Assembly: GCA_023819025.1 (NCBI GenBank)
Contig: JAMWDC010000001.1
Coordinates: 1-25,295 of the forward strand
Direction of reading: 5' to 3'
Length of the DNA stretch: 25,295 bases
From: Candidatus Omnitrophota bacterium
GTDB lineage: Bacteria > Omnitrophota > Omnitrophia > Omnitrophales > Aquincolibacteriaceae
Shown here: piece by piece, positions 3,612 to 24,436 of the stretch
Layout: the number at the start of each line of letters is the position of its first letter
How positions within the stretch are numbered: the stretch's first letter is position 1
Program-made: the position numbers and the translations under genes
Notes under the pieces: model-generated
The model's input: the letters and a program-made list of their open reading frames with translations, nothing else
The model's database searches: none
Told to the model about the DNA's origin: nothing

Positions 3612-4828
3612 AAAAATTTTGCTATCGGGCTAAAAAAGGGCCTCATGAAACGGTTGAAGGAATCGTAACTGCGGAATCCCAGGATGAAGCGATCGACAAG
3701 ATCAATCAGATGGGCCTTTTTGCAGTTGATGTCAAAGTCCAACGCCCCAACTATACCCCCCGGGGTTTAGTTTTCCGACTGAGAAGAAATAAAATGAAAG
3801 GGCGCGATATCATCGCGTTTTACCGACATTTAGGCCGGCTGACGCGATCCGGCGTGCCCATCTTACGGGCGCTGAATTTAATTACCGAGCAAATTCAATC
3901 CGAAACAGTAAAATCGATTTTGGAAGATATTCAAATGGCAGTCCGTCAGGGACATACGTTGTCTTCAGCCCTTGCGATCCACCCAACGATATTTTCTCCT
4001 TTTGATATTGCCATGATCCAAGCCGGTGAAAGCGCAGGACATATGGAAGAAGCGCTCATCAAGGTTGTGAACTATCGTGAACAGTTCGAGAGCCTGTCTT
4101 CCAAGGTCCGTTCAGCATTGGCTTATCCCTTATTGGTCCTTTCGGCAGGTATTTTAACTGCAGGCTTTATGTTGTATTATGTGGTACCCCGCTATATGCG
4201 GTTCTTTTCCGATTTGGGACAACAATTACCTTTGCTGACCCGGATTCTGATTGCCGTGAGTCAATGGATTACGACTTATGGGATATGGATTTTACTCCTA
4301 GGGATTTTATCTTCAATCGCGATAAGAAAGGTGTTGACTTTGAAATCGTACCGACAACGCTTCCACCAGATCCTGCTCGAAATCCCGCTTCTTGGAAGCC
4401 TCTTCATAAAAATTGAAACCGTTCATTTGACACGGACACTGGCGTTACTCGTGAAAAGCGGTATCCCGGTTCTGAACGCCGTGAAAATTGCAATTCCCGT
4501 CCTCAGGAATGAGGGCATGAAACACGAACTTGAACAATGCTATCAGATGATCGAAGATGGACGGTCCTTAAGTGAGAGTTTGCGACATTCAAAGTATTTC
4601 CCGGGGTTATTGATCCAGTTGGTGACTTTGGGTGAGGAATCCGGCCGGCTCGACGAGGCCTTAACCGAAATTGCGGATTGGTATGAGCGAGATACGGTCG
4701 AGGTAATCCATATCGGGACCCAGCTTTTAGAACCCGGCGTTATTTTACTGGTTGGATTATTTTTAGGGCTTGTGGTGATATCGGTTCTCTTACCCGTTTT
4801 CAGTATTCAGGCAACGATCGTTTCCTAA
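3608..4828 (+). CDS. gspF: GspF/PilC inner-membrane platform protein
   Basis: N-terminal FCYRAKKG, duplicated SGVPILRAL / SGIPVLNAV helices, AGESAGHM and LGEESGRL, LAYP, LEP, three TM segments. GTG start overlaps the gspE stop (GTGA). Confidence 0.93.
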   Translation: MKKFCYRAKKGPHETVEGIVTAESQDEAIDKINQMGLFAVDVKVQRPNYTPRGLVFRLRRNKMKGRDIIAFYRHLGRLTRSGVPILRALNLITEQIQSETVKSILEDIQMAVRQGHTLSSALAIHPTIFSPFDIAMIQAGESAGHMEEALIKVVNYREQFESLSSKVRSALAYPLLVLSAGILTAGFMLYYVVPRYMRFFSDLGQQLPLLTRILIAVSQWITTYGIWILLLGILSSIAIRKVLTLKSYRQRFHQILLEIPLLGSLFIKIETVHLTRTLALLVKSGIPVLNAVKIAIPVLRNEGMKHELEQCYQMIEDGRSLSESLRHSKYFPGLLIQLVTLGEESGRLDEALTEIADWYERDTVEVIHIGTQLLEPGVILLVGLFLGLVVISVLLPVFSIQATIVS

Positions 4829-4909
4829 GCAGAGAGGAGAAGGGAAGACGAAGATGATTCTCGTCGGGTGGTGGTTTAAAAACGCTGTGAGCATGGAATG
4901 GAGGCTTTC

Positions 4910-5350
4910 ATGAAAGTACGTCGTGCGTTGGTTTATGGAAGAAAAGGTTTCAGTTTAATTGAAATTTTATTGGTGGTGATTATCATCGGCACTTTATCAG
5001 CAATGGTTGTTCCAAGATTGTTGGGCCGATCCGACCAAGCCCGCATCACAGCAGCCAAAGCGGATATTGAAGTTAATATTCCCACCGCTTTGAAGTTATA
5101 CGAACTCGACAACGGATTTTTCCCCACGACCGAGCAGGGACTCAACGCGCTTTTAAAGAAACCGACCTCAAGTCCGGAGCCCCAAAATTGGAATGGGCCC
5201 TACTTGGAGAAAATACCGATGGATCCTTGGGGGAGGCCTTATCAATATCGATCGCCCGGGACTCAACGTCCGCACGATTATGATCTTTTCTCGAAGGGTA
5301 AAAATGACCGCGCTGAAAAGACTGACGACGATATTGTCAATTGGGAGTAG
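4910..5350 (+). CDS. gspG: Major pseudopilin GspG
   Basis: Class III signal G|FSLIEILLVV, LYELDNGFFPTTEQGLNAL, WNGPYL, DPWGRPYQYRSPG, C-terminal DDDIVNW. GGAGG at 4900-4904 favours ATG 4910 over the track start at 4898. Confidence 0.93.
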   Translation: MKVRRALVYGRKGFSLIEILLVVIIIGTLSAMVVPRLLGRSDQARITAAKADIEVNIPTALKLYELDNGFFPTTEQGLNALLKKPTSSPEPQNWNGPYLEKIPMDPWGRPYQYRSPGTQRPHDYDLFSKGKNDRAEKTDDDIVNWE

Positions 5351-5363
5351 CTCATCGCATCGG

Positions 5364-5756
5364 ATGAAAACCCAAACGGGCATGATTCTGCTCGAAATTT
5401 TATTGAGTGTGTTAGTGCTATCCGTCGGGCTTATCGCCGTCTATCGGCCTCTTTTGGCGTCTCTCAGTGCCCTCGATTATGCCGATACGCGGCTCGAAGC
5501 CCGCCATTTTATCGCAGACCGAATCTGGGAATGTCAACGCGCCATCCTTGAGAAGAAACGGCTGCCGACCATGGTCCAGAAGCAGCCGGTGGTATTGAAT
5601 AAACGGCAGGCTTATTATCAGGTGAAGATCATGCCTTTGAGTCCCGATAACCATTTGCTACGATTGAATCATGTGGTTTGGTGGCGCGCTGGCGGGCGTA
5701 TCAAAAATGTCAAACAATTCACCTACGTCAATCTGCCCTATGAGAAAAATTCGTAA
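5364..5756 (+). CDS. Minor pseudopilin, GspI/PilV-like
   Basis: MKTQTG|MILLEILLSVLVLSVGL: class III signal with Glu+5. The track ORF from 5193 over-extends into gspG; ATG 5364 is in frame. Confidence 0.75.
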   Translation: MKTQTGMILLEILLSVLVLSVGLIAVYRPLLASLSALDYADTRLEARHFIADRIWECQRAILEKKRLPTMVQKQPVVLNKRQAYYQVKIMPLSPDNHLLRLNHVVWWRAGGRIKNVKQFTYVNLPYEKNS

Positions 5757-6360
5757 TCAGTCGGGTTTAACCATGATGGAGATCTTGGTGGCTGTTTTAA
5801 TTATTTCTTTTTTGGCTGGAGTTCTCTATACTACTTTTTCTCACGGCATGGATGTATGGCGCCGAGCCGTGAGGGGATTTCCGGAATCAGATATGGATAT
5901 TTTTTTTGATAAAGTATCTACGGATTTGAGAAATGCCTTTGCCTTTTTGCCTAAATCATTAATGGGTACAACCCATTCCGTACAATTTTATACCCTCGTC
6001 CCCTCAGGGGATTTTACAGTAACCATCGTCAAAGAGCCCATGCAGGAGCCGGCTCGTGTTCGTTATGATTTCGATCGAGACCATAAGGCGATCTGGAGGC
6101 GTCAGGAACGGTACCCTCAAATTCTTTACGCCTACAGCGGACTCCAACCACGGGTCGCAAAGTTAGCCGAGGGCATTTCGAATATCGAACTTGAGTACTA
6201 TGCCTATGATGAAAACGCTAAAAAATTTGTCTGGTCTTCCGGTTGGGATAAGTCGTATTTGCCGTGTGCAGTGAGAATGAAGCTGACTTCTGAAAAGCCG
6301 TCGGCGAAAAAGGTGTTCATGCGTGTCATTTCGATCCCTGCGGGTATGACAGCCAATTAA
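5740..6360 (+). CDS. Minor pseudopilin, GspJ/PilW-like
   Basis: MRKIRNQSG|LTMMEILVAV, DKVSTDLRNAF, C-terminal LPCAVRMKL typical of GspJ. ATG 5740 is in frame with the track ORF from 5671. Confidence 0.78.
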   Translation: MRKIRNQSGLTMMEILVAVLIISFLAGVLYTTFSHGMDVWRRAVRGFPESDMDIFFDKVSTDLRNAFAFLPKSLMGTTHSVQFYTLVPSGDFTVTIVKEPMQEPARVRYDFDRDHKAIWRRQERYPQILYAYSGLQPRVAKLAEGISNIELEYYAYDENAKKFVWSSGWDKSYLPCAVRMKLTSEKPSAKKVFMRVISIPAGMTAN

Positions 6361-6370
6361 GGAGTTCAGG

Positions 6371-7870
6371 GTGGGTAAGGTACGGCTTCCGGTGTCGGGT
6401 TTGATTCCGTCGGGCCGCATGCGGGATTTGGTCGCTGTGGATTTATCATCCAGTTCGGTCAAAGTAGTCCACGCGACTCGGGGTCCGGAAGAATTGGTTG
6501 CCTTTCGTCATCTAAACACCAGAGAATTTGGTGAGAACGCCGATGATGAAATCAGTCAATATCTTGCGGGTTGCATTAAGGAATTCGGTGTCTCTTCCAG
6601 AGATATCTTATGCATGATCCCCTCCACACTTTTTATCTCTAAAAACGTCGATATGCCTTCCAGTGACAGGGAAGAGATCGATAAAATTATTGATCTGCAA
6701 GCAGGTCGCTATACGCCTTATTCCCGTGACGAGATCGTGATTGATTATGTCTGCATGGAGACGACCGGGCAACATTATACGAATGTCTTGCTGATCATCG
6801 TGAATCGGCAAGTGGTCGATCGCTATCTGCAGGTTGCGGGAAAGGCGGGGCTGAATATCGAGCGGTTTGTGATTTCTTCAGAAGGAATGGCGAATTGTTA
6901 TGATGCCATGGATGAAACGGGATCCGATTCGTATGCCGTCGGAGGAATCCATATTGAGGAGAATTTTTCCGACTTTACCGTCATCAACAATCATCAGATG
7001 GTATTTGTCCGGAATATACCGGTTGGGTTCAATCATTTCAAAAAGGATCGGGAGCATGCCCTCAACGATTTTTTGGGTGAGCTGGACAAATCCGTGGTTG
7101 CTTACCGGGATCAAGGCGTAGGGAAAACCATCAAGTCGATGATCGTTACGGGTTTGATCGACGGGCTTGCTTTTTTGGAGGAATCTATTCGAAAGACGAT
7201 CAACCGGCTTTACGGTCCGGGTGGCGAAGTGAAGTTCGTCCCGTACGCTACACTTTTCCAGGCCGAGAGTGATTTAACTCAGCGCCTAGAATCGGAACAG
7301 AAGAATTCTTTTTTCCCCCTGATGGCGTCTCTTTCGGCTTTATTGTTTTTAAAAATCGATTTGACCCCCAAAGAAATCAAGTTAAAAAGGCGCGTCCGGC
7401 AAGGCAGTAAAGAGGTGATGACCTTAGGCATTTTGATCATGGTATGTCTTGTCTTATGGTGCTTATATCTCGCAACAAAGATTTATATCAAAAGTGACAT
7501 TATCCAAAAATTGGATGAGATCCAATCTTCTACCGCGGAAGATGCGCGTCTTTTAGAACGAGCCTCAACGAAAACGCGTGTTGTCAAATCGTTGCTCAAG
7601 GACCGGGGAAAAGCGCTCTATGTCTTTGAAAGGGTGACGTCGTTAATTGGGAAAGAAATCTATTTGACGGATTTTAGCTACGATACGGCGGGGGATATTT
7701 TGCTTGTGGGGACGGCAAATTCAATGTCTCGGGTTTTTGCGTTTGTTTCCGAACTTGAGGAATCAAATTACTTTAGCAGCGTTAAAACCAAATCGACCAA
7801 GACGCGTCGTGTTGGACAAATGGACGTTGCCGATTTTGAAATTGAGTGCACATTGTCCGGGGAAATTTAG
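6371..7870 (+). CDS. PilM-PilN fusion (GspL-like assembly protein)
   Basis: N-terminal actin-like AVDLSSSSVKVV, internal IDLTP (PilN INLLP-like), one TM segment, C-terminal PilN-like domain (FVSELEESNYFSSV...DFEIEC). AAGGAG at 6359-6364 precedes GTG 6371. Confidence 0.78.
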   Translation: MGKVRLPVSGLIPSGRMRDLVAVDLSSSSVKVVHATRGPEELVAFRHLNTREFGENADDEISQYLAGCIKEFGVSSRDILCMIPSTLFISKNVDMPSSDREEIDKIIDLQAGRYTPYSRDEIVIDYVCMETTGQHYTNVLLIIVNRQVVDRYLQVAGKAGLNIERFVISSEGMANCYDAMDETGSDSYAVGGIHIEENFSDFTVINNHQMVFVRNIPVGFNHFKKDREHALNDFLGELDKSVVAYRDQGVGKTIKSMIVTGLIDGLAFLEESIRKTINRLYGPGGEVKFVPYATLFQAESDLTQRLESEQKNSFFPLMASLSALLFLKIDLTPKEIKLKRRVRQGSKEVMTLGILIMVCLVLWCLYLATKIYIKSDIIQKLDEIQSSTAEDARLLERASTKTRVVKSLLKDRGKALYVFERVTSLIGKEIYLTDFSYDTAGDILLVGTANSMSRVFAFVSELEESNYFSSVKTKSTKTRRVGQMDVADFEIECTLSGEI

Positions 7871-7878
7871 GTGTTTGG

Positions 7879-8616
7879 ATGATTGTTGAACAAGTCGAAA
7901 CGTTTTATTCCAAGCTGTCAAAAAACGGGCAATTACTTTTCATTATTGCCGTGATCTCTTCTCTGATGGCGCTCATGGATTTGCTAGTGTTAGGTCCTAT
8001 CCTGACCCATATCCATTCCATGGATTTGGATATAGCGGACAAAACAGCGGCGTTGAAGCGTGATTTGAGGATCTTATCGTTCCGGGATGGGATCTTGTCA
8101 GAATATAAGAAGTATCAATCTTATTTGGATTCCGGCGAGAAGACCCAAGAACAGATCGTGTCGGCTTTATTGAATAAGATCGAGTCCTTTGCGAAGGAAA
8201 AATCGGTATCGATATCAGATGTTCAACCCGGGGATATGACAGAAAGTTCCATTTTTCAGATCTATAAGACGTCATTATCGGGCGAAGGTAAACTCTTAGA
8301 TGTTTTGCAATTTATGGACATGCTTGAAGAATCCGATTACCTATTTCGGGTGATCAAGTTTACATTAACCCCGAAATCGAAAGGTGCCGACGTCATGAAA
8401 TTTACTTTAGATATCGAACGGGTCCTTGTGGCAGGTGAAGAGATCACTCTTGAAGTTGACAAGGAGGCCTCCGGTCTGTCTCTCGAAGAATCAGCGGAAG
8501 CGGCTGAGGAATCGACGAGTGAGACAGACGCAATATTGGATGAGGCCGGTTCCAACACAGAACTACCCCCGGATGAATCGGCAACCGAGGATGCGGCATC
8601 ACCCGCCGGTGTGTAA
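7879..8616 (+). CDS. PilO/GspM-like bitopic protein with acidic low-complexity tail
   Basis: LSKNGQLL followed by a TM segment, coiled coil and a ferredoxin-like pattern (SLSGEGKLLDVLQFMDMLE). Sits after the PilMN fusion. Start is uncertain (7846 or 7879). Confidence 0.68.
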   Translation: MIVEQVETFYSKLSKNGQLLFIIAVISSLMALMDLLVLGPILTHIHSMDLDIADKTAALKRDLRILSFRDGILSEYKKYQSYLDSGEKTQEQIVSALLNKIESFAKEKSVSISDVQPGDMTESSIFQIYKTSLSGEGKLLDVLQFMDMLEESDYLFRVIKFTLTPKSKGADVMKFTLDIERVLVAGEEITLEVDKEASGLSLEESAEAAEESTSETDAILDEAGSNTELPPDESATEDAASPAGV

Positions 8617-8675
8617 AGGTTCAAATTTGGACAGTACGGAAGAAGTTTTTTGGGGGAATCCGTCTGATTGTAAAC

Positions 8676-9413
8676 GTGAGGCACTATTCTTTCAAAACAT
8701 GCAGACCATTATTATGCGGTGATTCTGGTCGGCATCCATTCGCTTCCACGACACGGTTTCAAGGGGTGCTCAAAATCACAGTCATCATCGGGTTGGTATT
8801 GTTGATTTGGGCTCATCCCAGTTTCGGTAAAAGTGTCGAGGACTATTATAAGGCGGGGGTCCGATATTTAGATAAGGGTAAATATGCAAAAGCCATTCGG
8901 CAGTTTCAAAAGATTCTGCAAGAGAGGCAGGATCTCCCGCAAATTTATAATCTGATGGGTGTTGCCTATTTACGAGAGGGGAAATCCATCGAAAGCGCCG
9001 TTGGATCTTTCCAGGAGGCGGTAAGGCTCGATCCCCATTTTACGGAGGGGTATTATAATTTGGGGGTGACGTATGTGGGGCCAGGGGATAATCCTTCCTT
9101 AGCCGCGCAATATTTTGAAAAGGCTATCGAAACCAATCCAGATTTTTTTCCTGCTTATTTAGGATTGGGGTGGATTACGTTATCGATCAATAAGGATCCG
9201 GAAAAAGCCATTTTGTTATTCGAAAAAGCAATTCAATGCCCCGAAAAAAAGGCGGAGGCGTATTACGGGTTGGGCATGGCTTATGCCACGCTGGGCAAAA
9301 AAGAAATGACCCTGATGCCGATTTCAATGCTAAGGTCCATGAACCGGCTGGATCTTTCATCGATCGAGGAATCGATGATCAAGGAAAAACCCGGTCAAGG
9401 GGATGGCTCATAG
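8676..9413 (+). CDS. Exported TPR-repeat protein
   Basis: About 5 TPR units (YYKAGVRY, IYNLMGVAY, YYNLGVTY, AYLGLGWI, AYYGLGMAY). Signal-like ITVIIGLVLLIWAHPSFG. True start is probably downstream (e.g. GTG 8766). Confidence 0.82.
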   Translation: MRHYSFKTCRPLLCGDSGRHPFASTTRFQGVLKITVIIGLVLLIWAHPSFGKSVEDYYKAGVRYLDKGKYAKAIRQFQKILQERQDLPQIYNLMGVAYLREGKSIESAVGSFQEAVRLDPHFTEGYYNLGVTYVGPGDNPSLAAQYFEKAIETNPDFFPAYLGLGWITLSINKDPEKAILLFEKAIQCPEKKAEAYYGLGMAYATLGKKEMTLMPISMLRSMNRLDLSSIEESMIKEKPGQGDGS

Positions 9414-9465: not shown

Positions 9466-9846
9466 CTAACGCGGGTTTTTCGGGGATTGATGGGCTGTGT
9501 CCTGCACCGATTGTATCGTCCTGATTTCGTGTTCCAAAAGAGCAAGCGTTTGAGCTAAGGTTTCGGTACGGTTGTTTTGTTCATTGACATAGAGGGTTAA
9601 AAGGAGGCTTAGAAAAATAAAAGCAACGAGCAGGAGGAAAAAGACAAAATTACTCGGCAGTGAAAAACCGGTTAGTTCGGAAAGAGTGACAAGGATATTT
9701 TCGTTCAGGGATAACACGAGTCCTGAAAAGGAAGCCCCGAGCCAAAACATCGAATACTTAAAGGTCATTTTTTGCCGTCGGATTAGCTCCACGACGGTCA
9801 GGAGGATTAAAAGAGAGGTGATGATGACAAAAAGTTTGGTCTGCAT
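9466..9846 (-). CDS. DUF2304-like small membrane protein
   Basis: Three TM segments, ELIRRQKMTFKYSMFWL, GFSLPSNFVFF, C-terminal coiled coil LAQTLALLEHE. AGGAG RBS. Lies directly downstream of a GT2 gene, the usual context for this family. Confidence 0.8.
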   Translation of the reverse strand: MQTKLFVIITSLLILLTVVELIRRQKMTFKYSMFWLGASFSGLVLSLNENILVTLSELTGFSLPSNFVFFLLLVAFIFLSLLLTLYVNEQNNRTETLAQTLALLEHEIRTIQSVQDTAHQSPKNPR

Positions 9847-9854
9847 TTTTTCTC

Positions 9855-10562
9855 CTATTGTTTTCTTTTTAACGTGTCGATGAGAATGGCGAAGGTAACC
9901 TTGATCATGTAGTAAATGGTTGAAAAATATCGAATCGAAGAAGTCCCGCCCAGGCGTTTGCGCATGTTGACAGGGACTTCTCGAATTCGGGCTCCATACC
10001 GAGTGGCGATCTTAATGGCTTCAGGTTCCGGGAAATCGATCGGATAATAACGAGAAAAATGCTCAATGAGATGTTTGCCCGTTGCTCGAAAACCCGATGT
10101 CGGATCTGTCAAGTAGACTCTGGTAAGCCAGCCGAGGAGAACCGAGAAAAACCGGATGCCCATTCTTCGTAAAAAAGTTGATTTAAAGCGTGAGCGGTCC
10201 GACAAAAAACGGCTTCCGATACAGAGGTCGGCTTCATCGTTCAAAACCGGTGATAGAACATCTTTGAGATAGGCGGGGTCGTGTTGTGCATCTCCGTCAA
10301 TTTGGATTGCGATATCGTATCCTTTTTGATGCGCGTACTTGAAACCAGTTTGAACAGCACCACCGATGCCGAGATTATAAGGGAGTGTTACAACGTGGGC
10401 GCCGCCTTGAGACGCTTTTTGGGCTGTGTCATCGCGGGATCCGTCATTGATCACTAAGATTGTGTAATTCGGATAACGCTTTGAGATATCTTGAACCAAC
10501 CGTTTGATGACCCTGCCCTCGTTGTAGGCAGGGATCATGACGAGGATGCGCTTCTTTTGCAT
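9855..10562 (-). CDS. GT2 glycosyltransferase, DPM1-like (polyprenyl-phosphate sugar synthase-like)
   Basis: IPAYNE, VINDGSRD, NLGIGGAVQTG, IDGDAQHDP, DPTSGFRA, EVPVNMRKR. Confidence 0.9.
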   Translation of the reverse strand: MQKKRILVMIPAYNEGRVIKRLVQDISKRYPNYTILVINDGSRDDTAQKASQGGAHVVTLPYNLGIGGAVQTGFKYAHQKGYDIAIQIDGDAQHDPAYLKDVLSPVLNDEADLCIGSRFLSDRSRFKSTFLRRMGIRFFSVLLGWLTRVYLTDPTSGFRATGKHLIEHFSRYYPIDFPEPEAIKIATRYGARIREVPVNMRKRLGGTSSIRYFSTIYYMIKVTFAILIDTLKRKQ

Positions 10563-10599
10563 GATATTTCAATTTCGGATCATTTTGCCATAGACTTTA

Positions 10600-13305
10600 A
10601 TGATGGAAAAGGCTTCTCAGGTGATTCGGGCTGTGCGTCAGAAGATCGATGGGTTTCTATTGATGATTAAGCAGAAATTCCAAGAAGCCCATCTTGCCTA
10701 TGAAGGCTTAAACCTTCAGCAGGGATCCCCGAGATTGATTTTATTTGTTATATCCTTTTTGTTTGTAAGTAGTTACGCAATTTACTTTAGAACTTATAAG
10801 CTTCATCGATTCTTGAATTTGGAATACAACTTTACACGCACCCAAGCTGAGAAAATTGTGACCGAGAAAATGACCAAACAGCTGAGAAGCATCATCGATC
10901 TTCAATTCCCTCAGATGGCGGATCGTGAAAAATCTCTCTTAGCAGAAGAGCGCGTTAAGGCTGCAAAAAATTCCGAAAAGGATAAATTTGAAGAAGCTGT
11001 TCGGCAAACCCAAAGATCCATGGTTCCGAGCTGGTATATGACATCGTCCCCACCCCAATCACGACACTACCTCCTTGAAGCCGATCCGTATTATTATTAT
11101 TACTTCACGAAAAACCTCTGTGAAACAGGTAAACCAGGCCCACCTTTGGAACGGCGCGGTGTGGTTTTTAACCCCCTGCGGAGATTTCCGATGGGAATGT
11201 CTGAGAGCGCCCTCGGGCATTCCTATGTAGGGTACTATTGGTTTCGGGCTGCGCATTTTTTTAATTCTAAAATCGATTTGATGGAATCGCTTAATTATGT
11301 TCCCCTTATTTTGGTTGTATTGGTGATCTTTGTTTTCTTCGTTTTCTGCCGTGTTATGCAGTTGGGGCTCTTGGCAGCTTTTTTGGGGAGTCTCGCCTTG
11401 GTCGGCGCGCCCATTTTTATCCAACGCAGTCAGTTTGGGTGGTACGACACCGATCCGTACAACTATATCTTTCCCTTCAGTATTCTGGCAGTTTATTTAT
11501 GGGGAGTTGGGGGAGATAAACGATGGCTGCTAGGATCCGTTGCCGCGGGTTTTCTGACCGGGCTTTATTCTAATTTCTGGCCTGGTTGGCCGTTTATTTT
11601 TTATTACTTAAGTGTCAGTGGCTCGGTGATAGGATGTATTGTTTGGTTTTTTCGGCGAAAGTTTATGAATTCTTTTATCAAGAGCACCCTCGGATATATT
11701 CTAGCGGCTCTGTCTTTTCTCATGTTTTTTATGCCCTCGACTGTCTTATGGGCTGCACTCATGGAGCCGTTGAGGGCACTGCCATTATTTGCGAGCAAGA
11801 GCGGTGTTGTGAATTTATGGCCGAATGCACTCTTGGCCGTAGGCGAAACCAAAGAGGTCTCATTGAGAAAACTCGTGTATCTTATTGGGAATCAGCTTAC
11901 GTTGTGGTTAGCTGGGATGGGCGTTGTCCTTACCCTTGGAAGTTTTTTTGTGCGGCAGAATATTCTGTATATTAGTCAGTGGTTTCTTCTCATGGTTTTG
12001 ATTTTGCCTCTTTTGATGTTATCGCTAAATGTTGAACGTTTTACGCTTTTATTTGTCATACCCATGAGCATTTTTGTGGCGGCAGGTATTGAAAGGGCTT
12101 ATGAACTCCTTGGGCATTTATTTTGCCTCTTCATCAGAAACCGCCCCTTTCAACAAATTTTTCGAGTCATTTTGGGCGGTTCCATGCTGCTAATATTTTT
12201 ACCGGCGGCATCCATTACAGCCCATATTTCTGCTCAGATCGATCATACGATTATGAATGATACATGGTTTGATGCCTTAAGTACGATCCGTCAGAAAACC
12301 CCTCAACATTCAGTAGTTATCAGTTGGTGGCCCCCTGGACATTTTATCACTTCAGTTGCAGAAAGGGCCGTTTTTACAGACGGAGGATCCCAGCATTTGC
12401 GCGAAACCTATTGGGTGGCCAAAGGTTTGTTGGAAATGGGCGAGGACGTAGCTGTGGGAATTTTTCGAATGTTGAATATTTCGGGTGCATCTGCGACATC
12501 CTTTTTGGAATCTTTGGGATTTCCTCCCTCAAAAATAGTCGGGTTTATCCTTCAGATAGTTCCTCATTCGAAAGGAGTTGCCCTGAAGATGTTGGAGCAA
12601 TCATCCACCGGATTATCCCTGAGCCAAATGAAGCATCTTGTTGATTTGACCCATGGCAACACTCCACCACGTCCCAATTATATTTTAATGTACAATGATA
12701 TGATCGATCAGACTTTAGCCCTTACGTTTTTAGCTTACTGGGATTTTGACAAGGCCGAAGCCATCATGAAAGCACCGCGTACTTTTTTAGATTTCAAATC
12801 GTTTCCCTCTCCCTCTAAAGCGGGGCCCGTACAAAAAAAAACCAGCCTTCAACAGATCTTAGAATCTTCAGGATGCATTTTGAAGTATACCCCCGAAGCG
12901 GAGCTGGTACGGCGGGAGGGGGATAAGCTCTATTTTGGGAATGGCTTGATGGTGGATCTGACAACGATGGATTCCTACGTTGCCCTGCCTGAAAAGTTGG
13001 TGAGCGGTCGACCGATAAGCTTCTTTTACATGCAGGGTGGGCAGCTGGTTCAAAAGGAAAATGCCGGTGAACGGGTGGATGCTTCCGCGCTCTTGATCTC
13101 CCGAAACGGTCGCTATACCTCTGTAATTGCGGATCCGAAACTGATACGGTCGGTCTTGTTCCGCCTTTGGTATTTAAATGGAGCGGGGTTGAATTTTTTT
13201 AAACCGTTTTATGAAAAGGCGGATCCTGCAAATCAAACAAGGATTTTGGTTTTTGAAATCGACTGGCCGGCGTTTGAAAGATTTCAAGCCAACGAGGTAT
13301 TTTAA
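10600..13305 (+). CDS. STT3/PglB/AglB-family oligosaccharyltransferase, non-canonical WWPPG motif
   Basis: EADPYY (STT3 EFDPW equivalent), R-x6-DTD (RSQFGWYDTD), AVGE (TIxE/SVSE equivalent), ERF, many TM segments, then SWWPPGH...DGGSQH in a large soluble C-terminal domain. Confidence 0.85.
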   Translation: MMEKASQVIRAVRQKIDGFLLMIKQKFQEAHLAYEGLNLQQGSPRLILFVISFLFVSSYAIYFRTYKLHRFLNLEYNFTRTQAEKIVTEKMTKQLRSIIDLQFPQMADREKSLLAEERVKAAKNSEKDKFEEAVRQTQRSMVPSWYMTSSPPQSRHYLLEADPYYYYYFTKNLCETGKPGPPLERRGVVFNPLRRFPMGMSESALGHSYVGYYWFRAAHFFNSKIDLMESLNYVPLILVVLVIFVFFVFCRVMQLGLLAAFLGSLALVGAPIFIQRSQFGWYDTDPYNYIFPFSILAVYLWGVGGDKRWLLGSVAAGFLTGLYSNFWPGWPFIFYYLSVSGSVIGCIVWFFRRKFMNSFIKSTLGYILAALSFLMFFMPSTVLWAALMEPLRALPLFASKSGVVNLWPNALLAVGETKEVSLRKLVYLIGNQLTLWLAGMGVVLTLGSFFVRQNILYISQWFLLMVLILPLLMLSLNVERFTLLFVIPMSIFVAAGIERAYELLGHLFCLFIRNRPFQQIFRVILGGSMLLIFLPAASITAHISAQIDHTIMNDTWFDALSTIRQKTPQHSVVISWWPPGHFITSVAERAVFTDGGSQHLRETYWVAKGLLEMGEDVAVGIFRMLNISGASATSFLESLGFPPSKIVGFILQIVPHSKGVALKMLEQSSTGLSLSQMKHLVDLTHGNTPPRPNYILMYNDMIDQTLALTFLAYWDFDKAEAIMKAPRTFLDFKSFPSPSKAGPVQKKTSLQQILESSGCILKYTPEAELVRREGDKLYFGNGLMVDLTTMDSYVALPEKLVSGRPISFFYMQGGQLVQKENAGERVDASALLISRNGRYTSVIADPKLIRSVLFRLWYLNGAGLNFFKPFYEKADPANQTRILVFEIDWPAFERFQANEVF

Positions 13306-13340
13306 CGATGCGTTACCCCAAAAGTTAAGGAGAACGATTG

Positions 13341-13670
13341 ATGGAGATTCGAGTCAGCATTCGAGGAGGCATATTCGCATGTGGCTTGTCAATCATGTTT
13401 CTGACGGGTTCATTGCAGGCACAGGAGGATACGGGAGTCAAGAAACATGGGGTGGTTTATAATATTGCTGAAGATCGAGAACTGGAAAAAATCGGCGGGA
13501 TTTATGAACCCGAAGGCCTGGATAAGTATGTAAAAAGAAAATTTGACATGGTTCTCCAGAAAATGGACGATTTGGATGCAAGGATGACGAACGTTGAAAA
13601 AGAACTTGGAATTTTGCAATCAAAATTGGACACGGCTTTAAACCAAGATCAAAAAAAAATCAAACACTAA
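13341..13670 (+). CDS. Small exported coiled-coil protein of unknown function
   Basis: AAGGAG at 13327-13332. Signal peptide ends SLQA|QE. Heptad pattern VLQKMDDLDARMTNVEKELGILQSKL. Confidence 0.72.
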   Translation: MEIRVSIRGGIFACGLSIMFLTGSLQAQEDTGVKKHGVVYNIAEDRELEKIGGIYEPEGLDKYVKRKFDMVLQKMDDLDARMTNVEKELGILQSKLDTALNQDQKKIKH

Positions 13671-13755: not shown

Positions 13756-14805
13756 ATGATATTCTTTCACAACGGTAAGGGCAGTATTCTGATTCTGACC
13801 CTTTGGGTTCTTACGCTACTCAGTGTCTTTGTTGTTTCCGTTGGGTACTCAACGCGCCAGAGGTTGCGGAAGTTGCAGCACCTTGAAAACCGCGAAACGT
13901 TGCGCACCGTCGCCGATGCAGGCGTTCGGCAGGCTATTTATTTTGTGAACGCGACTCAAGGCAGACCTTTCACGCCGCATGGCTTTAGTGACCGACCGTC
14001 TCGAGGGGTAGCAAATTTCCAAGATGTCCTGATCGGGGATGCTATGTTTTCAGTGATTGTACTTGATGGTTCATTGGCCCCGGAGAAATCCCGCGATTCA
14101 GCTCACAGTTTCCGCTACGGAGTCGTTGATGAAGAGCGGAAGATTCATCTCAACCAAACTAACTCACCCCAGATTCTGAAGCGCCTCTTCCAACTTGCAG
14201 CGGGTTTAAATGAGGTTGATGCTCATACGATTGCTGTTTCCATACTGGATTGGCGGGACGAAGATGACTTTCCCTATGATCGAGGTGCCGAAAGCTTTTA
14301 TTACAAAAGCCGTAAGCCGCCCTATATCCCTAAAAATGCCGACTTTAATTCTCTGGAAGAGTTGTTGCTGGTTCGAGGTGTCTCCCCAGAGATCTATCGA
14401 AAGGTCCTTCCCTATCTCACCTTGGATAGTTCGGGAAAGATCAATATCAATACGGCGTCGCGTGTGGTGTTGGAAGCTGTGGGTTTTAGTGAGTCACTCA
14501 CATCAAAAATATGGCGTTATCGCGCTGGGAAAGACACCCGCGAAGGAACCCGGGACGACAAGTTTTTTAAAGATCTATCGACCGTAGCCGATAATATATC
14601 AGGTATATATTACTTAACGGATGATGAAAGGGGCAGTTTGGAAAGTTTTATCGGTTCGGGAATGATCATCGTTCGATCAGAAAATTTCTCGATTCATAGT
14701 ATCGCCCGATTTAAAAATCGGGCGAATCCGACATTGACCATTCATTGTGTTGTGACGCTTGATGGTCGGATCAAGCGATGGCAGGAATATTTTAACGTGG
14801 CCTAG
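13756..14805 (+). CDS. gspK: Minor pseudopilin GspK
   Basis: G|SILILTLWVL without Glu+5 (typical of GspK), DEERKIHLN, ILDWRDED, FNSLEELLLVRG, GKININTAS. Confidence 0.9.
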   Translation: MIFFHNGKGSILILTLWVLTLLSVFVVSVGYSTRQRLRKLQHLENRETLRTVADAGVRQAIYFVNATQGRPFTPHGFSDRPSRGVANFQDVLIGDAMFSVIVLDGSLAPEKSRDSAHSFRYGVVDEERKIHLNQTNSPQILKRLFQLAAGLNEVDAHTIAVSILDWRDEDDFPYDRGAESFYYKSRKPPYIPKNADFNSLEELLLVRGVSPEIYRKVLPYLTLDSSGKININTASRVVLEAVGFSESLTSKIWRYRAGKDTREGTRDDKFFKDLSTVADNISGIYYLTDDERGSLESFIGSGMIIVRSENFSIHSIARFKNRANPTLTIHCVVTLDGRIKRWQEYFNVA

Positions 14806-14837: not shown

Positions 14838-16052
14838 GTGTGGTTTAAGTTCAGTGCACCAAGTGCATCAATGACCCGATCCGGTATGATGATGAGTGGG
14901 AAACTCTTATTAATATTGATGGTTGTCGGATGTTTGTCTTTTGGGATTTGGCTTTTACCTATTTTCGCACAGGATGCAGGTCCCTCGTTCGATATTCTCG
15001 AAGAACTCAAACTTTATTCCAAGGCCTTGGGTGCTATTGTGCAAGGTTATGTCGAAGACAAAAACCCACGGGAACTATTCTACGATTCTGTGAGAGGGAT
15101 GTTGAAATCTCTTGATGAATACTGTGAGTTTTTCAGCCCCGATCAGTACGAGCTTGTCAAAATCAGCATGAAGGGGGAATACTCAGGGATCGGGGCCAAA
15201 ATCGAAATTGTCGATCACTATCCCTCCATCGCTGAACTCAAGCCGGATAGCGCGGCGATGAAGGCTGGCTTAGAGGTTCACGACCGCATTCTCAAAGTGG
15301 ATGGCGTGTCGATGATGGATAAAGCCGTCGGGGATGTTTCTTCGCTTCTCCGGGGCGATGTTGACACAGCCTTAGTCTTGACAATTTTTCGGGAGGCAAC
15401 TCAAAAAACATTTGATGTAAAGATTATCCGCGAAAAAGTTGTTCTTGAAGCAGTCAAGGATGTTAGGATGGTTGGACGCGCTTTGGGGTATATGAGAATT
15501 TCCGAGTTTCAGGAAAAAACTGCCGAACAAGCGAAAAAGGCCTTAAGGAAGCTTCACGGAAAGAAAATGGGTGCTTTAATTTTAGACCTCCGGGGAAATA
15601 TTGGGGGTTTGCTTCCGGAAGCGATCGAACTCGCCGAACTCTTCTTACCGGACGGAGTCAAAATCGTTACGGTGAAAAGCAAAATTCCGGAACAGCGGAA
15701 TGAGTATTATTCTAAGGCCAAAGAAGTCGAGCCGTTTTATCCCATGATTATTTTGGTCAACGAGGCAACGGCAAGCGCATCTGAAATATTTACAGGGGCG
15801 ATGCAGGATCACGGCCGTGCCAAGGTGATTGGTACTAAAACATACGGCAAGGCCTCGGTCCAGTCCGTGATTCCATTAGACGAGAAATCGGCCATGAAGA
15901 TAACAACAGCGCGCTATATTACGCCGAATGGACGCATCATCGATAAGGTCGGGATTGTGCCTGATGAGGTGATTGAAAATAAACCAGCCGGCACACCCGG
16001 TTATGACGTACAAACCAGTCGTGCCCTGGAGCTGTTTCAACAATACATTTAG
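14838..16052 (+). CDS. ctpA: S41-family carboxyl-terminal processing protease with PDZ domain
   Basis: YSGIGA (PDZ), LILDLRGNIGG, TASASEIFTGAMQD (catalytic Ser), GTKTYGKASVQ (catalytic Lys), TTARYITPNG. Start may be ATG 14886, 14889 or 14892. Confidence 0.92.
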   Translation: MWFKFSAPSASMTRSGMMMSGKLLLILMVVGCLSFGIWLLPIFAQDAGPSFDILEELKLYSKALGAIVQGYVEDKNPRELFYDSVRGMLKSLDEYCEFFSPDQYELVKISMKGEYSGIGAKIEIVDHYPSIAELKPDSAAMKAGLEVHDRILKVDGVSMMDKAVGDVSSLLRGDVDTALVLTIFREATQKTFDVKIIREKVVLEAVKDVRMVGRALGYMRISEFQEKTAEQAKKALRKLHGKKMGALILDLRGNIGGLLPEAIELAELFLPDGVKIVTVKSKIPEQRNEYYSKAKEVEPFYPMIILVNEATASASEIFTGAMQDHGRAKVIGTKTYGKASVQSVIPLDEKSAMKITTARYITPNGRIIDKVGIVPDEVIENKPAGTPGYDVQTSRALELFQQYI

Positions 16053-16897: not shown

Positions 16898-17599
16898 TTA
16901 GTTTTTTATCGCACGGAAGATCATATCGCCTGCCAATAGATTAGGCCACCACATCCTCGTCGCAGGGAGAATTCCAGCACATTGGGATTCCAAGATTTTA
17001 AACCCTTGGCCCTGCAAGAGCGTTTTCATCGTCGGATAAGTAAATCGGTGTAGAATTCCCCCCTCCCAGGCAGGAAATTTATTAAAAGTCGGCAGTTTGC
17101 CCAAAAGGGATTCCAAACGTCTTGGAAGATAGGCTACATTCATGGTATGGATAATCAGGACCCCCTGTGGGACAAGGATTCGGTGAAGTTCCTTCAGGAA
17201 AGCGAAAGGATCGAAGAGGTATTCGATCGTACTCAAACAAATGACAAGGTTGAATGAGTGGTCTTTAGAAGGAATGGGATCGTTTAAATTATGCTGAACA
17301 ACACTCAATTTGGGATTGGTTTTGAGGGATGCCGGGATTCCATCCAACCGGTAGGAGGAAATATCAAATCCCGTATAATGGCCGAACTGGTTAAGTTTTC
17401 GGACGGCGATTTGACAGGGGCCACAGCCGACGTCAGCGACCTCTGGATAGGTGTTGGTGCCGATCATCTGACAAGCGACGTCGATGCGCGTTTTAGCGAA
17501 GGGAAGTAAAAAGCGGTAAAAGGCGTGATCCATTGCCTTGGTCTCATCTCCATCAAGCAAGGCATAGCGGGCGTTATAAAAAGCTGCGGGATCCGTCAT
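16898..17599 (-). CDS. Class I SAM-dependent methyltransferase
   Basis: VADVGCGP motif I, GFDIS, DLVIC-like FNLVICLSTIEY, LHRILVPQGVLII. ATGA overlap with the upstream aminotransferase. Confidence 0.88.
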   Translation of the reverse strand: MTDPAAFYNARYALLDGDETKAMDHAFYRFLLPFAKTRIDVACQMIGTNTYPEVADVGCGPCQIAVRKLNQFGHYTGFDISSYRLDGIPASLKTNPKLSVVQHNLNDPIPSKDHSFNLVICLSTIEYLFDPFAFLKELHRILVPQGVLIIHTMNVAYLPRRLESLLGKLPTFNKFPAWEGGILHRFTYPTMKTLLQGQGFKILESQCAGILPATRMWWPNLLAGDMIFRAIKN

Positions 17600-18735
17600 G
17601 ACAATGTTGACCGGATAGTTGCAATCGTTTGACAGACTCGGTCAATTTCGTCGTCCGTAATTGCCAATCCACTCGGCAGATAACAACCGTTCTGAGAAGC
17701 GTATTCCGTATTTGGGAAAATTTCGGTCAACGTCAAATATTTTTGCAATACCGGCTGCCTATGCGGTGGATAAAATAAATCCCGTGAGTCAATCTGGTAA
17801 TCGCGAAGACGGATTCTCAGCTCGTCTTTGCTGATCCCAAATTTTTCTTTTTCGATCAGAATCACATACATCCAGTAAACATTTTTAACTTCAGGTCGTG
17901 TCACCGGTGTTCGGATACCCGGGATTGTTGTTAACTGGGATCGATAACGTTCCGCCATGGATAATTTCCGGGAAATCGACTGCTGAACATTTTCGAGCTG
18001 TCCAAGTCCAATGGCTGCCTGAATGTTGGTGAGCCGGTAGTTGTAGCCAATATCCTCATGGATAAACCGCCGTTGATCGGAATGATAAAGGTCTCGGATT
18101 TTCCTGAGTTTTTTTGCCAGGGCATCGCTGTTAGTGAGGATCATCCCGCCTTCGCCTGTGGTTACAATTTTATTGGCATAAAAACTGAAGCAGGCGATAT
18201 CACTCATCGCACCGCACTTTCGACCTTTGTATTCTCCTCCGTGTGCCTCCGCCGCATCTTCAATGACGAAAAGACCGAACCGCTTGGCGATCTCCAGGAT
18301 GGTATCCATGTCGCAGGAATGGCCGAAAAGGTGTACGGCCATCAGGGCTTTGGTCTTTCTTGTGATTTTTGCCTCAATTTGACGGGGGTCGATATTGAAA
18401 GTCTCCTGGTCGCAATCGACGAAAACCGGTTTTGCACCGGTATACAGGACGGCAAAGATCGTCGCCATCATCGTAAAGGCGGGAACAATGACTTCATCTC
18501 CAGGTTGGATACCCAGGGCACAAAGAGCGGCGTGGAGAGCCGCCGTGCCGCTTGAAACACTGATTCCATGTTTCGTTCCAATATAGTCGGCAAATGTTCG
18601 TTCGAATTTTTCGATATAGGAACCGGCCGAAGAGATCCACCCCGTTTCCAAACAATCCATAGCGTACCTTTTCGCGGCTTCCGAAATCAAAGGTTCATTG
18701 ACGGGAATGAATTTATTCTTTAAATCGTTTCGCAT
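17596..18735 (-). CDS. DegT/DnrJ/EryC1/StrS PLP-dependent sugar aminotransferase (perosamine synthase-like)
   Basis: SSGTAALH, VIVPAFT, IEDAAEAHG, FSFYANKIVTTGEGGM (PLP Lys), GYNYRLTNIQAAIG, CYLPSG. Confidence 0.92.
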   Translation of the reverse strand: MRNDLKNKFIPVNEPLISEAAKRYAMDCLETGWISSAGSYIEKFERTFADYIGTKHGISVSSGTAALHAALCALGIQPGDEVIVPAFTMMATIFAVLYTGAKPVFVDCDQETFNIDPRQIEAKITRKTKALMAVHLFGHSCDMDTILEIAKRFGLFVIEDAAEAHGGEYKGRKCGAMSDIACFSFYANKIVTTGEGGMILTNSDALAKKLRKIRDLYHSDQRRFIHEDIGYNYRLTNIQAAIGLGQLENVQQSISRKLSMAERYRSQLTTIPGIRTPVTRPEVKNVYWMYVILIEKEKFGISKDELRIRLRDYQIDSRDLFYPPHRQPVLQKYLTLTEIFPNTEYASQNGCYLPSGLAITDDEIDRVCQTIATIRSTLS

Positions 18736-19144
18736 ATTGGTCGCCCGGATAGGGCCCTTGCTTGACCTCGATCAGCCGGACCTCCTCAAGGACATCAAAG
18801 GAATGCCCTCCGGTGATCGAAAAGAAAAAATCGCCAGCATCGAGGATCGTTGCATAGATAACTTTCCAATCGGACGTATAAATTTTGACTTTCATCCTGC
18901 CCTTTTCCACATAAAGGAATTCCTGAGTTGTATTCACCTCATAATGCATGTCCCGATGCAGATGAGGCCGGAATGAATAGCCTTTTTTTCGTTCGATCAG
19001 CCCCAGCTGAAGGGGATAATCCGCAGGGGTCAAGAACTTGACGCCATCGCCCACGGCCAGTTTTTTACGAAAGATGTAAGCATAAAGTGTCCCTTCGTGC
19101 TCAATTCGTTCGATGGCAGTCATTTCAGGTTCATTCGTCATCAT
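18713..19144 (-). CDS. Cupin-fold protein of sugar-nucleotide gene clusters
   Basis: FRPHLH, TQEFLYVEKG, GGHSFDVLE, EVKQGPY. ATG 19144 overlaps the upstream TAA (TAATG); the track start at 19213 over-extends. Confidence 0.72.
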   Translation of the reverse strand: MMTNEPEMTAIERIEHEGTLYAYIFRKKLAVGDGVKFLTPADYPLQLGLIERKKGYSFRPHLHRDMHYEVNTTQEFLYVEKGRMKVKIYTSDWKVIYATILDAGDFFFSITGGHSFDVLEEVRLIEVKQGPYPGDQYAKRFKE

Positions 19145-20391
19145 TACGCTCTCCCATCTGACTGTTTTGCCTTCTCGAGGATCTCGAGGATCCGATCGAC
19201 CACCCGGTCCCAATTATACCTTAAAAGAACTTGTTTGCGAGCCTCCTCTCCGAATTTTTTTCTTAGGGGGTCATTCGTCAACAGTTCGGTCAGATATTTT
19301 TCAAGGGATCTCGTATCGCCTGCTCGGTAGAGAAATCCCGTGAGTTCATGCACGATCTCGTCCGCGGTGAAATCGGTACGGACTCCAGGTGTCCCACACG
19401 CCATGCATTCTAACACAAAAAGACTCGCAGCGCTGGCCCCACGGCCAATCCCGGTGTAAAGGGATACATCCGCCAAGGAATAATAATACGGCAAGTCGTT
19501 ATGGGACACGTGACCCACGAATTCGATATGATCGTTCAAGTCATGGTCTTGAACATACCGCTTTAACCGTGCAAGTTCTCTGGCGTTTTCAAATGACCAG
19601 GTAATGAGCAGTTTTAAGTTTGGGATTTTATTTTTGATGACCTCGATGATTTGAACGGCATCCCAGGTTTTTTTGAGCGGTGTAAAGTCCGTGCTGTGGA
19701 TGATAATCTTTTTCCCTTCGTACTTTCTGATCAAGGCCGGGTTTGGTTTCGGCGCAAAGAAATCGGTATCAACGCCCAGATAGCTGGGAATGGCGTCCCG
19801 GCAATAAATCTCGCGCGCCCAATCGGCGGTCCCACGGTTGATGGTCATGACGACCGTTGCTTTCTGAACGCCCTCAATATCCAGATTTTTATAGCATTGC
19901 GCCAGCACGCTCAGCAGAATTCTATCGAACATGGGGAAGCCGTGGATCATATCCCGGTCATGAAAGAAGGCAAAGGGTTCCATAACGTAAGACATGTAGG
20001 GATAAGCCGTTGCGCGATAAACGACGTAATTCATTGGAAACATGGACGTAATGAAAAAAGAGTAGCGACTTTTTAATTCCTGAAGTCTGCGAATATCTTT
20101 TTCAAGGTAAAATGGAAAAAAAAGCCAGTACCAGTGACTGGTGGACGAACGGTTGTTGATTTCAATCACCGACATACCTTCGCGGCGGTATCGTTCGTTC
20201 ATCTCCGGAGAACACCTTTCGACGATCATATCCACGGGTATCTTTTGATGCATTCTCCGGGACACCTCATAAACGAACTTTGTCCCACCCGCCCAGAGGA
20301 GAAAATGGGAATGCAGCCAAGCGATCCTCTTAATTTTCGCGTTTTTGACGGTTTCTTCTTTCACGTGTGTATCCAACTTCGTAATTTGCAA
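19144..20391 (-). CDS. GT4 (GT-B) glycosyltransferase
   Basis: GGTKFVYE, YLGVDTDFF, LKKTW, FVGHVSHNDLPYYYSLADV, LECMACGTP, YNWDRVV. Start is uncertain (TTG 20391 or GTG 20364). Confidence 0.9.
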   Translation of the reverse strand: MQITKLDTHVKEETVKNAKIKRIAWLHSHFLLWAGGTKFVYEVSRRMHQKIPVDMIVERCSPEMNERYRREGMSVIEINNRSSTSHWYWLFFPFYLEKDIRRLQELKSRYSFFITSMFPMNYVVYRATAYPYMSYVMEPFAFFHDRDMIHGFPMFDRILLSVLAQCYKNLDIEGVQKATVVMTINRGTADWAREIYCRDAIPSYLGVDTDFFAPKPNPALIRKYEGKKIIIHSTDFTPLKKTWDAVQIIEVIKNKIPNLKLLITWSFENARELARLKRYVQDHDLNDHIEFVGHVSHNDLPYYYSLADVSLYTGIGRGASAASLFVLECMACGTPGVRTDFTADEIVHELTGFLYRAGDTRSLEKYLTELLTNDPLRKKFGEEARKQVLLRYNWDRVVDRILEILEKAKQSDGRA

Positions 20392-20426
20392 TTCTTAGAA
20401 ATCGGTTTGAAAGGGAGTTCGAAACG

Positions 20427-22058: not shown

Positions 22059-22104
22059 CTTATTTTTCTATCCGAGATGTTCTGTATAGCCTCCATAACC
22101 CGGT

Positions 22105-24433: not shown

Positions 24434-24436
24434 GGA

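Follow-up and report, generated by a model that had tools for sequence, protein, structure and literature searches.

The STT3-like gene and its altered motif

The stretch of DNA considered here, referred to throughout as the window, comprises 25,295 nucleotides of the Candidatus Omnitrophota assembly GCA_023819025.1 (contig JAMWDC010000001.1), and its subject is the single long open reading frame (ORF) at 10600-13305 on the forward strand, which encodes an STT3-like protein of 901 amino acids (aa; P0001) placed beside the genes of a pilus- or secretion-type machine. A sequence-only reading of the window had pointed out that the WWDYG motif of the oligosaccharyltransferases is replaced in this protein by WWPPG, and had suggested that an otherwise competent enzyme might accept something other than the N-X-S/T sequon. 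The features of the gene are as follows.

10600-13305 (+): glycosyltransferase of fold class C (GT-C), STT3/PglB/AglB family, recognised by Pfam, an AlphaFold2 model and Foldseek
11083-11085 (+): D162 (EADPY), the first DXD-type Asp in external loop 1 (EL1), equivalent to D47 of Archaeoglobus fulgidus AglB (AfAglB) and to EFDPY of STT3A
11425-11454 (+): R276 (codon 11425-11427) ... D283-T-D285 (11446-11454), the second DXD motif, aligned with ISRSVAGSYDNE of STT3A and QRSILGFNDHH of AfAglB
11836-11847 (+): A-V-G-E416 (Glu codon 11845-11847), the TIXE/SVSE-type motif of EL5; family consensus T-V-G-E
12037-12039 (+): R480 (ERF), equivalent to R426 of AfAglB and to the STT3A Arg by the donor phosphate
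12325-12342 (+): WWPPGH, replacing WWDYG; family consensus WW[P/S/C/A]PG[H/Y]F
12379-12396 (+): D594-G-G-S-Q-H, a DGGK-type motif with the Lys replaced; family D-G-[G/A]-[T/S]
12694-12720 (+): N-D-M-I-D-Q-T-L-A, candidate DK/MI counterpart placed by pattern and topology, after strand 693-698

The codons TGG TGG CCC CCT GGA CAT at 12325-12342 read, in the frame of this ORF, W576 W577 P578 P579 G580 H581, just as had been described, and D162, R276, D283-x-D285 and E416 all lie where the sequence-only reading had placed them. The DGGSQH that it had seen downstream is likewise present, but ends at 12396 and not, as it had given, one base earlier at 12395.

The protein belongs to the STT3 family by sequence and by predicted structure alike. 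The only Pfam families that it matches are of STT3 type: PF02516 (STT3), the family of the STT3/PglB/AglB oligosaccharyltransferases which we take to be GT66 of CAZy, is matched over residues 155-493 with 54.6 bits against a cut-off of 24.5, and the STT3/PglB core domains are matched below threshold only. The best sequence-profile match in the PDB was AglB (E 1e-17), and HMMER laid SWWPPGHF on the SWWDYGYW/Q of Pyrococcus furiosus AglB, A. fulgidus AglB and human STT3A. An AlphaFold2 model made on the family alignment (pLDDT 92.1, pTM 0.90) shows a GT-C multi-transmembrane domain followed by a C-terminal periplasmic domain of STT3 type. The top 19 Foldseek matches of this model were all PglB, AglB or STT3, headed by Campylobacter lari PglB (6gxc, 5ogl and 3rce; E 1e-18 to 1e-20, TM-score 0.67 over the target), with A. 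fulgidus AglB and then eukaryotic STT3A/B following and DPY19, ArnT and PMT far below. Two elements are additional to what PglB, AglB and STT3 possess: EL1 is extended by a long helical hairpin, and the periplasmic domain carries an insert of some 65 mostly helical residues at roughly 629-692.

When the features of STT3, PglB and AglB were looked for one at a time, both DXD-type motifs, the preceding Arg and the TIXE-type Glu were found, the D162 column aligning with GNDPWYYY of AfAglB and EFDPYFNY of STT3A, the second DXD region with RS..G.YDNE and RS..GFNDHH, and E416 with the GE of AfAglB; WWDYG and DGGK were absent. The TIXE/SVSE, DGGK and DK/MI motifs are used here as defined, with their roles, in PMC8342417. 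The candidate for DK/MI, at residues 700-706, was placed by pattern and topology and reads [D/E]-L-I-[E/D]-x-N-L across the family, with Lys at 703 in 14 of 190 homologues; by its position it would resemble the DK/MI helix, and when residues 686-730 were compared with the PDB by phmmer to locate this motif, only chance matches resulted. Because the features of catalysis and donor binding are all kept but WWDYG and DGGK are not, the protein is assigned to a divergent subfamily of STT3/PglB/AglB and is not filed as an N-X-S/T oligosaccharyltransferase.

Conservation of the motif and its relatives

A word-indexed search returned 95 clusters at 28-43% identity, nearly all of which carry WWPPG. When 1.84 billion representatives were searched exhaustively with HMMER, the family grew to 620 clusters at E <= 1e-30, or to 1154 with the limit set at E <= 1e-10. 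An alignment was made of 190 full-length members at 25-43% identity, derived mostly from metagenome-assembled genomes (MAGs) labelled Omnitrophota. The third motif column holds Pro in 141 members, Ser in 25, Cys in 8, Ala in 5, Asp in 5 and Thr in 4, so that the Asp of WWD is missing from 185 of the 190; the fourth is Pro in 186, and Tyr occurs in none at either of the two central places. On both sides the motif is retained, with W576 in 181 members, W577 in 188 and G580 in all, and WW[P/S/C/A]PG[H/Y]F is thus the motif of the family. Such conservation rules out a sequencing error, and private decay is equally ruled out, as the closest relatives also lack WWDYG and the altered motif is kept family-wide; the comparison of homologues that the sequence-only reading had proposed therefore shows WWxPG to mark a large clade and not a lesion private to this genome. 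A look-up of public runs listed no reads or transcripts of the stretch.

The catalytic and metal-binding set, which the same reading had believed to be intact, is invariant or nearly so throughout the family. D162, D285, E416, P408 and R589 are each present in 190/190, R276 in 189/190 and D283 in 188/190, whilst R480 is invariant in a smaller alignment of 87 rows (A1). As sequences so diverged would otherwise have lost these residues, the catalytic chemistry would appear to be in use. The acceptor side presents a different picture. Ser/Thr recognition, the role that had been attributed to WWDYG, is borne out by the literature, where the pocket is formed by WWDYG and DK/MI and the Asp of WWD is part of a Ser/Thr pocket conserved in all three domains of life (PMC8342417). 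In the present family the place of this Asp tolerates the small residues P, S, C, A and T, and therefore no side chain seems to be selected there. At the place of DGGK, D594 and G595 are each kept in 188/190, the fourth residue being Thr in 118 and Ser in 54, with Lys never among the top residues.

The protein itself contains sequons within conserved motifs: N626-I-S (12475-12483) lies in RMLNxSG, found in 57 of 89 locus homologues and present as MLNESG in the sister family described below, and N553-D-T (12256-12264) lies in IMNDxW, found in 40 of 89. These may be sites of self-glycosylation or merely conserved motifs.

Only one match in the first search, P0096, fell outside the family, and it heads a second family of Clostridia/Oscillospiraceae MAGs (P0096, P0206-P0241) that aligns with the Omnitrophota family over its full length, the helical insert RMLNxSG...LTH included (hhalign, probability 100, E 1e-115). 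This sister family keeps the Asp, as WWDDG in 28 of 37 members and as WWDYG in 5 of 37. In a gene tree rooted on it the outgroup forms one clade with support of 100, and the Asp-bearing members of the ingroup are scattered, four changes being needed to account for them; one of these members, P0094, groups with the outgroup on a long branch. Since the sister family retains the Asp and the Asp-bearing ingroup members are scattered on the rooted tree, the simplest reading would place the loss of the Asp at, or close to, the base of the Omnitrophota family.

The genes of the sister family were observed in clusters resembling those of ribosomally synthesised and post-translationally modified peptides (L092:8018-14131 and L093:7625-12613), in which a radical SAM protein, a PqqD protein and a small Cys-rich ORF accompany the STT3-like gene, with an ATP-binding cassette (ABC) transporter in addition in L092. 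The small ORFs (L092:9675-9920 and L093:9530-9730) share a YEK.VM.VV leader and contain N-X-S/T sequons (NES twice; NHT). It may be that these clusters make a ribosomal peptide that is N-glycosylated by an STT3-type enzyme.

Amongst the species representatives of GTDB, 205 stretches encode a relative, most of them with Omnitrophota titles and a minority with titles that are generic, Planctomycetales or, once, 'Patescibacteria group'. Among 301 Omnitrophota species genomes that were sampled, 105 have the STT3-like gene, including 85 of 248 high-quality genomes, and these 105 are spread over many families. The genome of the window (G000; 2.09 Mb, 82% complete) contains no STT3-family gene other than that of the window.

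The pilus-like machine and the putative sugar-donor genes

The following genes flank the STT3-like gene.

1317-9413 (+): type II secretion system (T2SS)/type IV pilus-like operon of GspE/PilB-like ATPase, GspF, GspG, two pseudopilins, PilM-PilN fusion, 256-aa protein and TPR protein
9466-9846 (-): DUF2304 membrane protein of the GacJ/Rv3632 family (Pfam PF10066, 3.5e-21), downstream of the GT2 gene
9855-10562 (-): glycosyltransferase of family 2 (GT2), 235 aa (P0245), of polyprenyl-phosphate sugar synthase type and transcribed away from the STT3-like gene
13338-13670 (+): small exported coiled-coil protein (P0204), found after the STT3-like gene in every complete locus that shares the layout of the window
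13756-14805 (+): GspK-like minor pseudopilin (Pfam PF21687, 9.1e-21)
14838-16052 (+): S41 C-terminal processing protease with PDZ domain, recognised by domain search

The gene order is thus that of the operon as written, then the GT2 and DUF2304 pair on the opposite strand, the STT3-like gene, the small coiled-coil protein, GspK and the S41 protease, with a 161-aa protein last. The TPR protein of the operon is periplasmic and PilW/Tgl-like.

In total 84 homologous loci were annotated with jackhmmer profiles of the window proteins, and those whose flanks reach 8 kb or more on each side (n = 37) were treated as fully flanked, a machine being counted where at least three of five core T2SS/type IV pilus (T4P)-like genes were present. 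Such a machine was found in 33 of the 37. Two layouts could be distinguished: type A, with 24 loci including that of the window, and type B, with 39 loci, in which the STT3-like gene converges on the TPR end of an operon with the order E-F-G-pseudopilins-K-PilMN-x-TPR. On the tree of the locus proteins the layouts are one change apart and type A is one clade with support of 100. Because the linkage has survived both this rearrangement and an identity span of 28-43%, there is good evidence that the STT3-like gene is functionally tied to the machine. In 19 of the fully flanked loci an S41 protease gene is found no more than 10 kb away from the STT3-like gene, and in the five type-B genomes examined it stands beside the GT2 gene.

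The GspE/PilB-like ATPase (1317-3611) joins an N-terminal MshEN domain to a C-terminal PilZ domain, two types of domain that bind cyclic di-GMP, an architecture also seen in loci L001-L003 and absent in L004. Directly upstream of the operon, at 2-1309, is a gene of the F1-ATPase alpha/beta family, and such a gene occurs within 10 kb in 18 of the 37 fully flanked loci. This agrees with the 'symbiotic' loci of F-type ATPase and type-4a pilus, which Seymour et al. 2023 (PMC10066038) describe as a putative trait of symbiosis that is widespread in Omnitrophota, in a text that contains no word starting with glycosyl or oligosacchar. Five secretin genes lie on other contigs of the window's genome (C104, C248, C53, C286 and C151).

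The start of the GT2 gene is separated from that of the STT3-like gene by a gap of 37 bp (window 10562-10600), and by 14-65 bp in L001 and L002. As this gap is short, as most homologues have nothing to match the first 43 residues of the STT3-like protein, and as the public call (P0002) begins 7 aa later, the true start of the gene and the promoters of the divergent pair are uncertain.

The best NCBIfam matches of the GT2 protein were PpgS (3.1e-31), AglJ (1.3e-23) and a Dol-P hexose transferase, all below their equivalog cut-offs, and its best matches in the PDB were the Pyrococcus dolichol-phosphate mannose synthase (DPMS) 5mlz (1.2e-15), ArnC and GtrB. The DUF2304 proteins GacJ and Rv3632 bind and stimulate the polyprenyl-P-HexNAc synthases GacI and PpgS (bioRxiv 10.1101/180810). 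The GT2 and DUF2304 pair adjoins the STT3-like gene in 24/24 type-A loci, and in type-B genomes an orthologous pair lies elsewhere, within a conserved operon, in all five examined (GT2 E 1e-74 to 1e-85). In the type-B genome G301 this operon (L100:1590-11816, and likewise in L101-L104) encodes an S41 protease, an OSCP(delta)-like protein of 121 aa, the GT2 and DUF2304, and continues with a methyltransferase, a second GT2, an ExeA-like AAA_22 ATPase, an unknown protein, a secretin and a TPR protein of 640 aa. It is the outer-membrane (secretin) half of the same kind of machine, tied to genes for the sugar donor.

Across the 301 Omnitrophota genomes, with E <= 1e-67 as the threshold for a GT2 orthologue, the STT3-like gene was present in 60 of the 63 genomes with such an orthologue and in 63 of the 74 with DUF2304; odds ratios from these counts overstate the case, as the sampled genomes are related and not independent. 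The co-occurrence fits the notion that the product of the GT2 is consumed by the STT3-like enzyme, which would be fed differently in other lineages. An analogous division of labour is found in the Agl pathway of Haloferax, where AglJ charges dolichol monophosphate and AglB transfers the glycan (PMC3871713).

Many type-A loci have an extra GT2 gene after the small protein, which was considered as a core component and dropped; it shares 26% identity with the GT2 of the type-B donor operon, to which it is not orthologous, and it is absent from that position in the window. Further downstream in the window, on the reverse strand at 16898-25132, is an operon of glycan type. It encodes three kinds of recognisable enzyme besides a GT2, namely a methyltransferase, a DegT aminotransferase and a GT4, as well as proteins of 166 and 304 aa and two larger ones, of 543 and 473 aa, that match nothing in Pfam or NCBIfam; its short GT2 is also of the polyprenyl-P-sugar synthase type.

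Proposed role, rival explanations and known systems

From these observations we propose an enzyme that keeps its machinery for metal, donor and nucleophile whilst its Ser/Thr-reading pocket has probably been rebuilt, through the change from WWDYG to WW[P/S/C/A]PG and loss of the DGGK Lys. In the lineage of the window the donor would most likely be a mono- or short oligosaccharide on polyprenyl monophosphate, made on the cytoplasmic face by the PpgS/GacI/AglJ-like GT2 with its GacJ-like DUF2304 partner and then presumably flipped to the periplasmic side. The transferase would glycosylate an acceptor belonging to the T2SS/type IV pilus-like machine, the likeliest being a (pseudo)pilin or some other exported component that is bound as an extended peptide along the T-V-G-E strand, and a hydroxy residue at +2 would be dispensable. 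Taken as a whole, this account of an active, periplasm-facing transferase that uses a polyprenyl-monophosphate donor and a machine acceptor with no need of a +2 hydroxyl seems to us to have about an even chance of being correct. Neither a polyprenyl-P-linked donor nor the machine as target, both now favoured by the gene context, had been part of the sequence-only reading, which had thought of a changed acceptor and possibly of another donor sugar.

The acceptor is the weakest link of the proposal. A protein is favoured, as the STT3 family acts on proteins and the family here would still offer the T-V-G-E strand and an invariant Glu/Asp to hold the acceptor amide. We know of no member of the STT3 family that acts on a non-protein acceptor. 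In AglB the strand of the TIXE-type motif pairs with the extended acceptor peptide (PMC8342417), and archaellins and pilins are among the substrates of AglB (PMC5131992). The synteny, in turn, favours a component of the machine.

Several results must be set against this proposal, and others point to no particular acceptor site. When GspG and the other pseudopilins, GspK, the small exported protein, the 161-aa and 256-aa proteins, the TPR protein and the S41 protease were searched for N-X-S/T sequons at conserved positions, none emerged: of about 55 sequences no more than 11 share even the best column, and the exported proteins of the locus are no richer in sequons (0.3-0.9 per 100 aa) than the cytoplasmic ATPase (0.5). 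The four sequons of GspK were entertained as targets and found no support, as they are not positionally conserved. The consensus of the pseudopilins showed canonical GspG only, with no positionally conserved motif. A prediction of the complex between residues 44-901 and mature GspG (18-150), run without controls, scored 0.00, and is evidence neither way. The donor module does not accompany the family everywhere, since 45 of the 105 genomes positive for the STT3-like gene have no GT2 orthologue and 42 no DUF2304. The domain annotation of the locus revealed no flippase, and the GtrA family (PF04138), the one flippase family for which the genome was searched, was not found in an assembly that is 82% complete. 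Four PglC-type phosphoglycosyltransferase genes do occur elsewhere in that genome, and a pyrophosphate-linked donor is therefore possible. Finally, the characterised modules of GacI/GacJ type feed enzymes that decorate polysaccharides and not proteins (bioRxiv 10.1101/180810).

This last point lends support to the idea of a non-protein acceptor, in which a polyprenyl-P-sugar would supply a side chain to lipopolysaccharide, capsule or wall polymer in the manner of GacL and Rv3779, the link to the pilus being indirect. All characterised GT2 and DUF2304 modules, PpgS/Rv3632 among them, serve GT-C enzymes of that sort, and an operon of glycan type, with its methyltransferase, DegT aminotransferase, GT4 and GT2, lies just downstream in the window. 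This is a rival to be taken seriously, and yet we regard it as unlikely, given that the peptide-pairing strand and the Glu that holds the acceptor amide are invariant, that the T2SS/T4P-like linkage recurs in two unrelated layouts, and that the donor genes, when they are not beside the STT3-like gene, sit in a secretin operon.

An ordinary N-oligosaccharyltransferase with general periplasmic targets, still reading N-X-S/T by means of the retained Trp pair or other residues, would explain why both Trp, the T-V-G-E strand and the catalytic set are all kept, why the closest fold is that of PglB and why the genome has PglC-type initiating enzymes. It accords poorly, however, with the tolerance of five different residues in place of an Asp that belongs to the Ser/Thr pocket in all three domains, with the loss of the DGGK Lys and an acidic residue at the putative DK position, with exported proteins that carry no conserved sequon and no more sequons than a cytoplasmic ATPase, and with tight linkage to one machine, which speaks against a general system; we consider it improbable. 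The loss of the canonical acceptor motif and the linkage to structural genes of the machine could also be reconciled with a catalytically dead protein, a scaffold or assembly factor that has kept only the STT3 fold. In such a protein the alignable residues that contact metal, donor and nucleophile would hardly be invariant, or nearly so, at 25-43% identity, nor would a dedicated sugar-donor synthase co-occur with its gene, and this explanation appears very remote.

If the proposed transferase is extended to its furthest consequence, the family may be the first known case of a bacterial STT3-type enzyme that follows a new acceptor rule, placing a sugar from polyprenyl monophosphate, with no sequon or a different one and perhaps not on Asn, onto pilus-like filament subunits of the 'symbiotic' F-ATPase/type IV pilus loci of Omnitrophota, whilst its WWD-bearing sisters in Clostridia would N-glycosylate ribosomal peptides, the two together forming an unrecognised branch of substrate-dedicated bacterial oligosaccharyltransferases. 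This wider picture is offered tentatively, and is more probably wrong than right in at least one of its parts. A literature search found no description of an STT3 or oligosaccharyltransferase of Omnitrophota, nor of the motifs WWPPG, WWSPG or WWxPG. All characterised STT3, AglB and PglB enzymes read the +2 hydroxy residue through WWD, and a large natural family that keeps the chemistry without this check would suggest that the acceptor choice of an ancient enzyme can be rewired, with a possible use in glyco-engineering as a transferase free of the sequon rule. Pilus glycosylation in other systems influences assembly, adhesion and phage resistance. For the Omnitrophota, bacteria that are ultra-small, have not been cultured and are believed to live on other cells, a glycosylation module would be added here to the pilus/F-ATPase loci that have been proposed to serve attachment (PMC10066038).

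Amongst known systems, the best structural match is PglB of Campylobacter lari/jejuni, a single-subunit N-oligosaccharyltransferase (Foldseek E about 1e-19, TM-score 0.67). The two share a single-subunit architecture of multiple transmembrane segments and a periplasmic domain, both DXD-type motifs, the TIXE-type Glu, the Arg by the phosphate and DGG; they differ in WWPPG for WWDYG, in the replaced Lys of DGGK, in the additional EL1 hairpin and insert, in an identity of only 14-15%, and in a context that is a pilus/secretion operon and not a pgl cluster. The archaeal AglB/Agl system provides the best PDB profile match, an AglJ-type GT2 for a polyprenol-monophosphate donor and natural targets that include subunits of type IV filaments, but AglB keeps WWDYG and DK/MI and needs N-X-S/T (PMC8342417), whereas the present family is bacterial and has lost the Asp.

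A short soluble GT2 with DUF2304 beside a polytopic GT-C enzyme is the arrangement of GacI/GacJ/GacK/GacL in Streptococcus pyogenes and of PpgS/Rv3632/Rv3779 in Mycobacterium tuberculosis. Here, by contrast, the GT-C partner is of STT3 type and not of GacL/Rv3779 type, the known Gac and Rv acceptors are polysaccharides, and a flippase gene was not recognised (only GtrA having been searched genome-wide). In role and neighbourhood there is a parallel in TfpW, the GT-C enzyme of the group IV pilins of Pseudomonas aeruginosa, whose gene likewise adjoins those of pilins and which glycosylates the pilin by way of a polyprenyl-monophosphate sugar pathway (bioRxiv 10.1101/2020.04.19.049825). It belongs, however, with the Emb-like and not the STT3-like enzymes, having a DDX motif and a TPR domain, so that this is a functional analogy with no homology shown. 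The same holds for the pilin-modifying enzymes PilO/TfpO and PglL, as Pfam shows no homology of the present protein to the Wzy_C-type O-oligosaccharyltransferases or to Emb-like TfpW, and the likeness is one of neighbourhood and proposed role. The nearest relative found to bear WWD is the STT3-like family of Clostridia/Oscillospiraceae, alignable over its full length with the helical insert included, which differs in having kept the Asp and in being encoded not in pilus operons but in clusters of radical SAM, PqqD, small-peptide and ABC-transporter genes.

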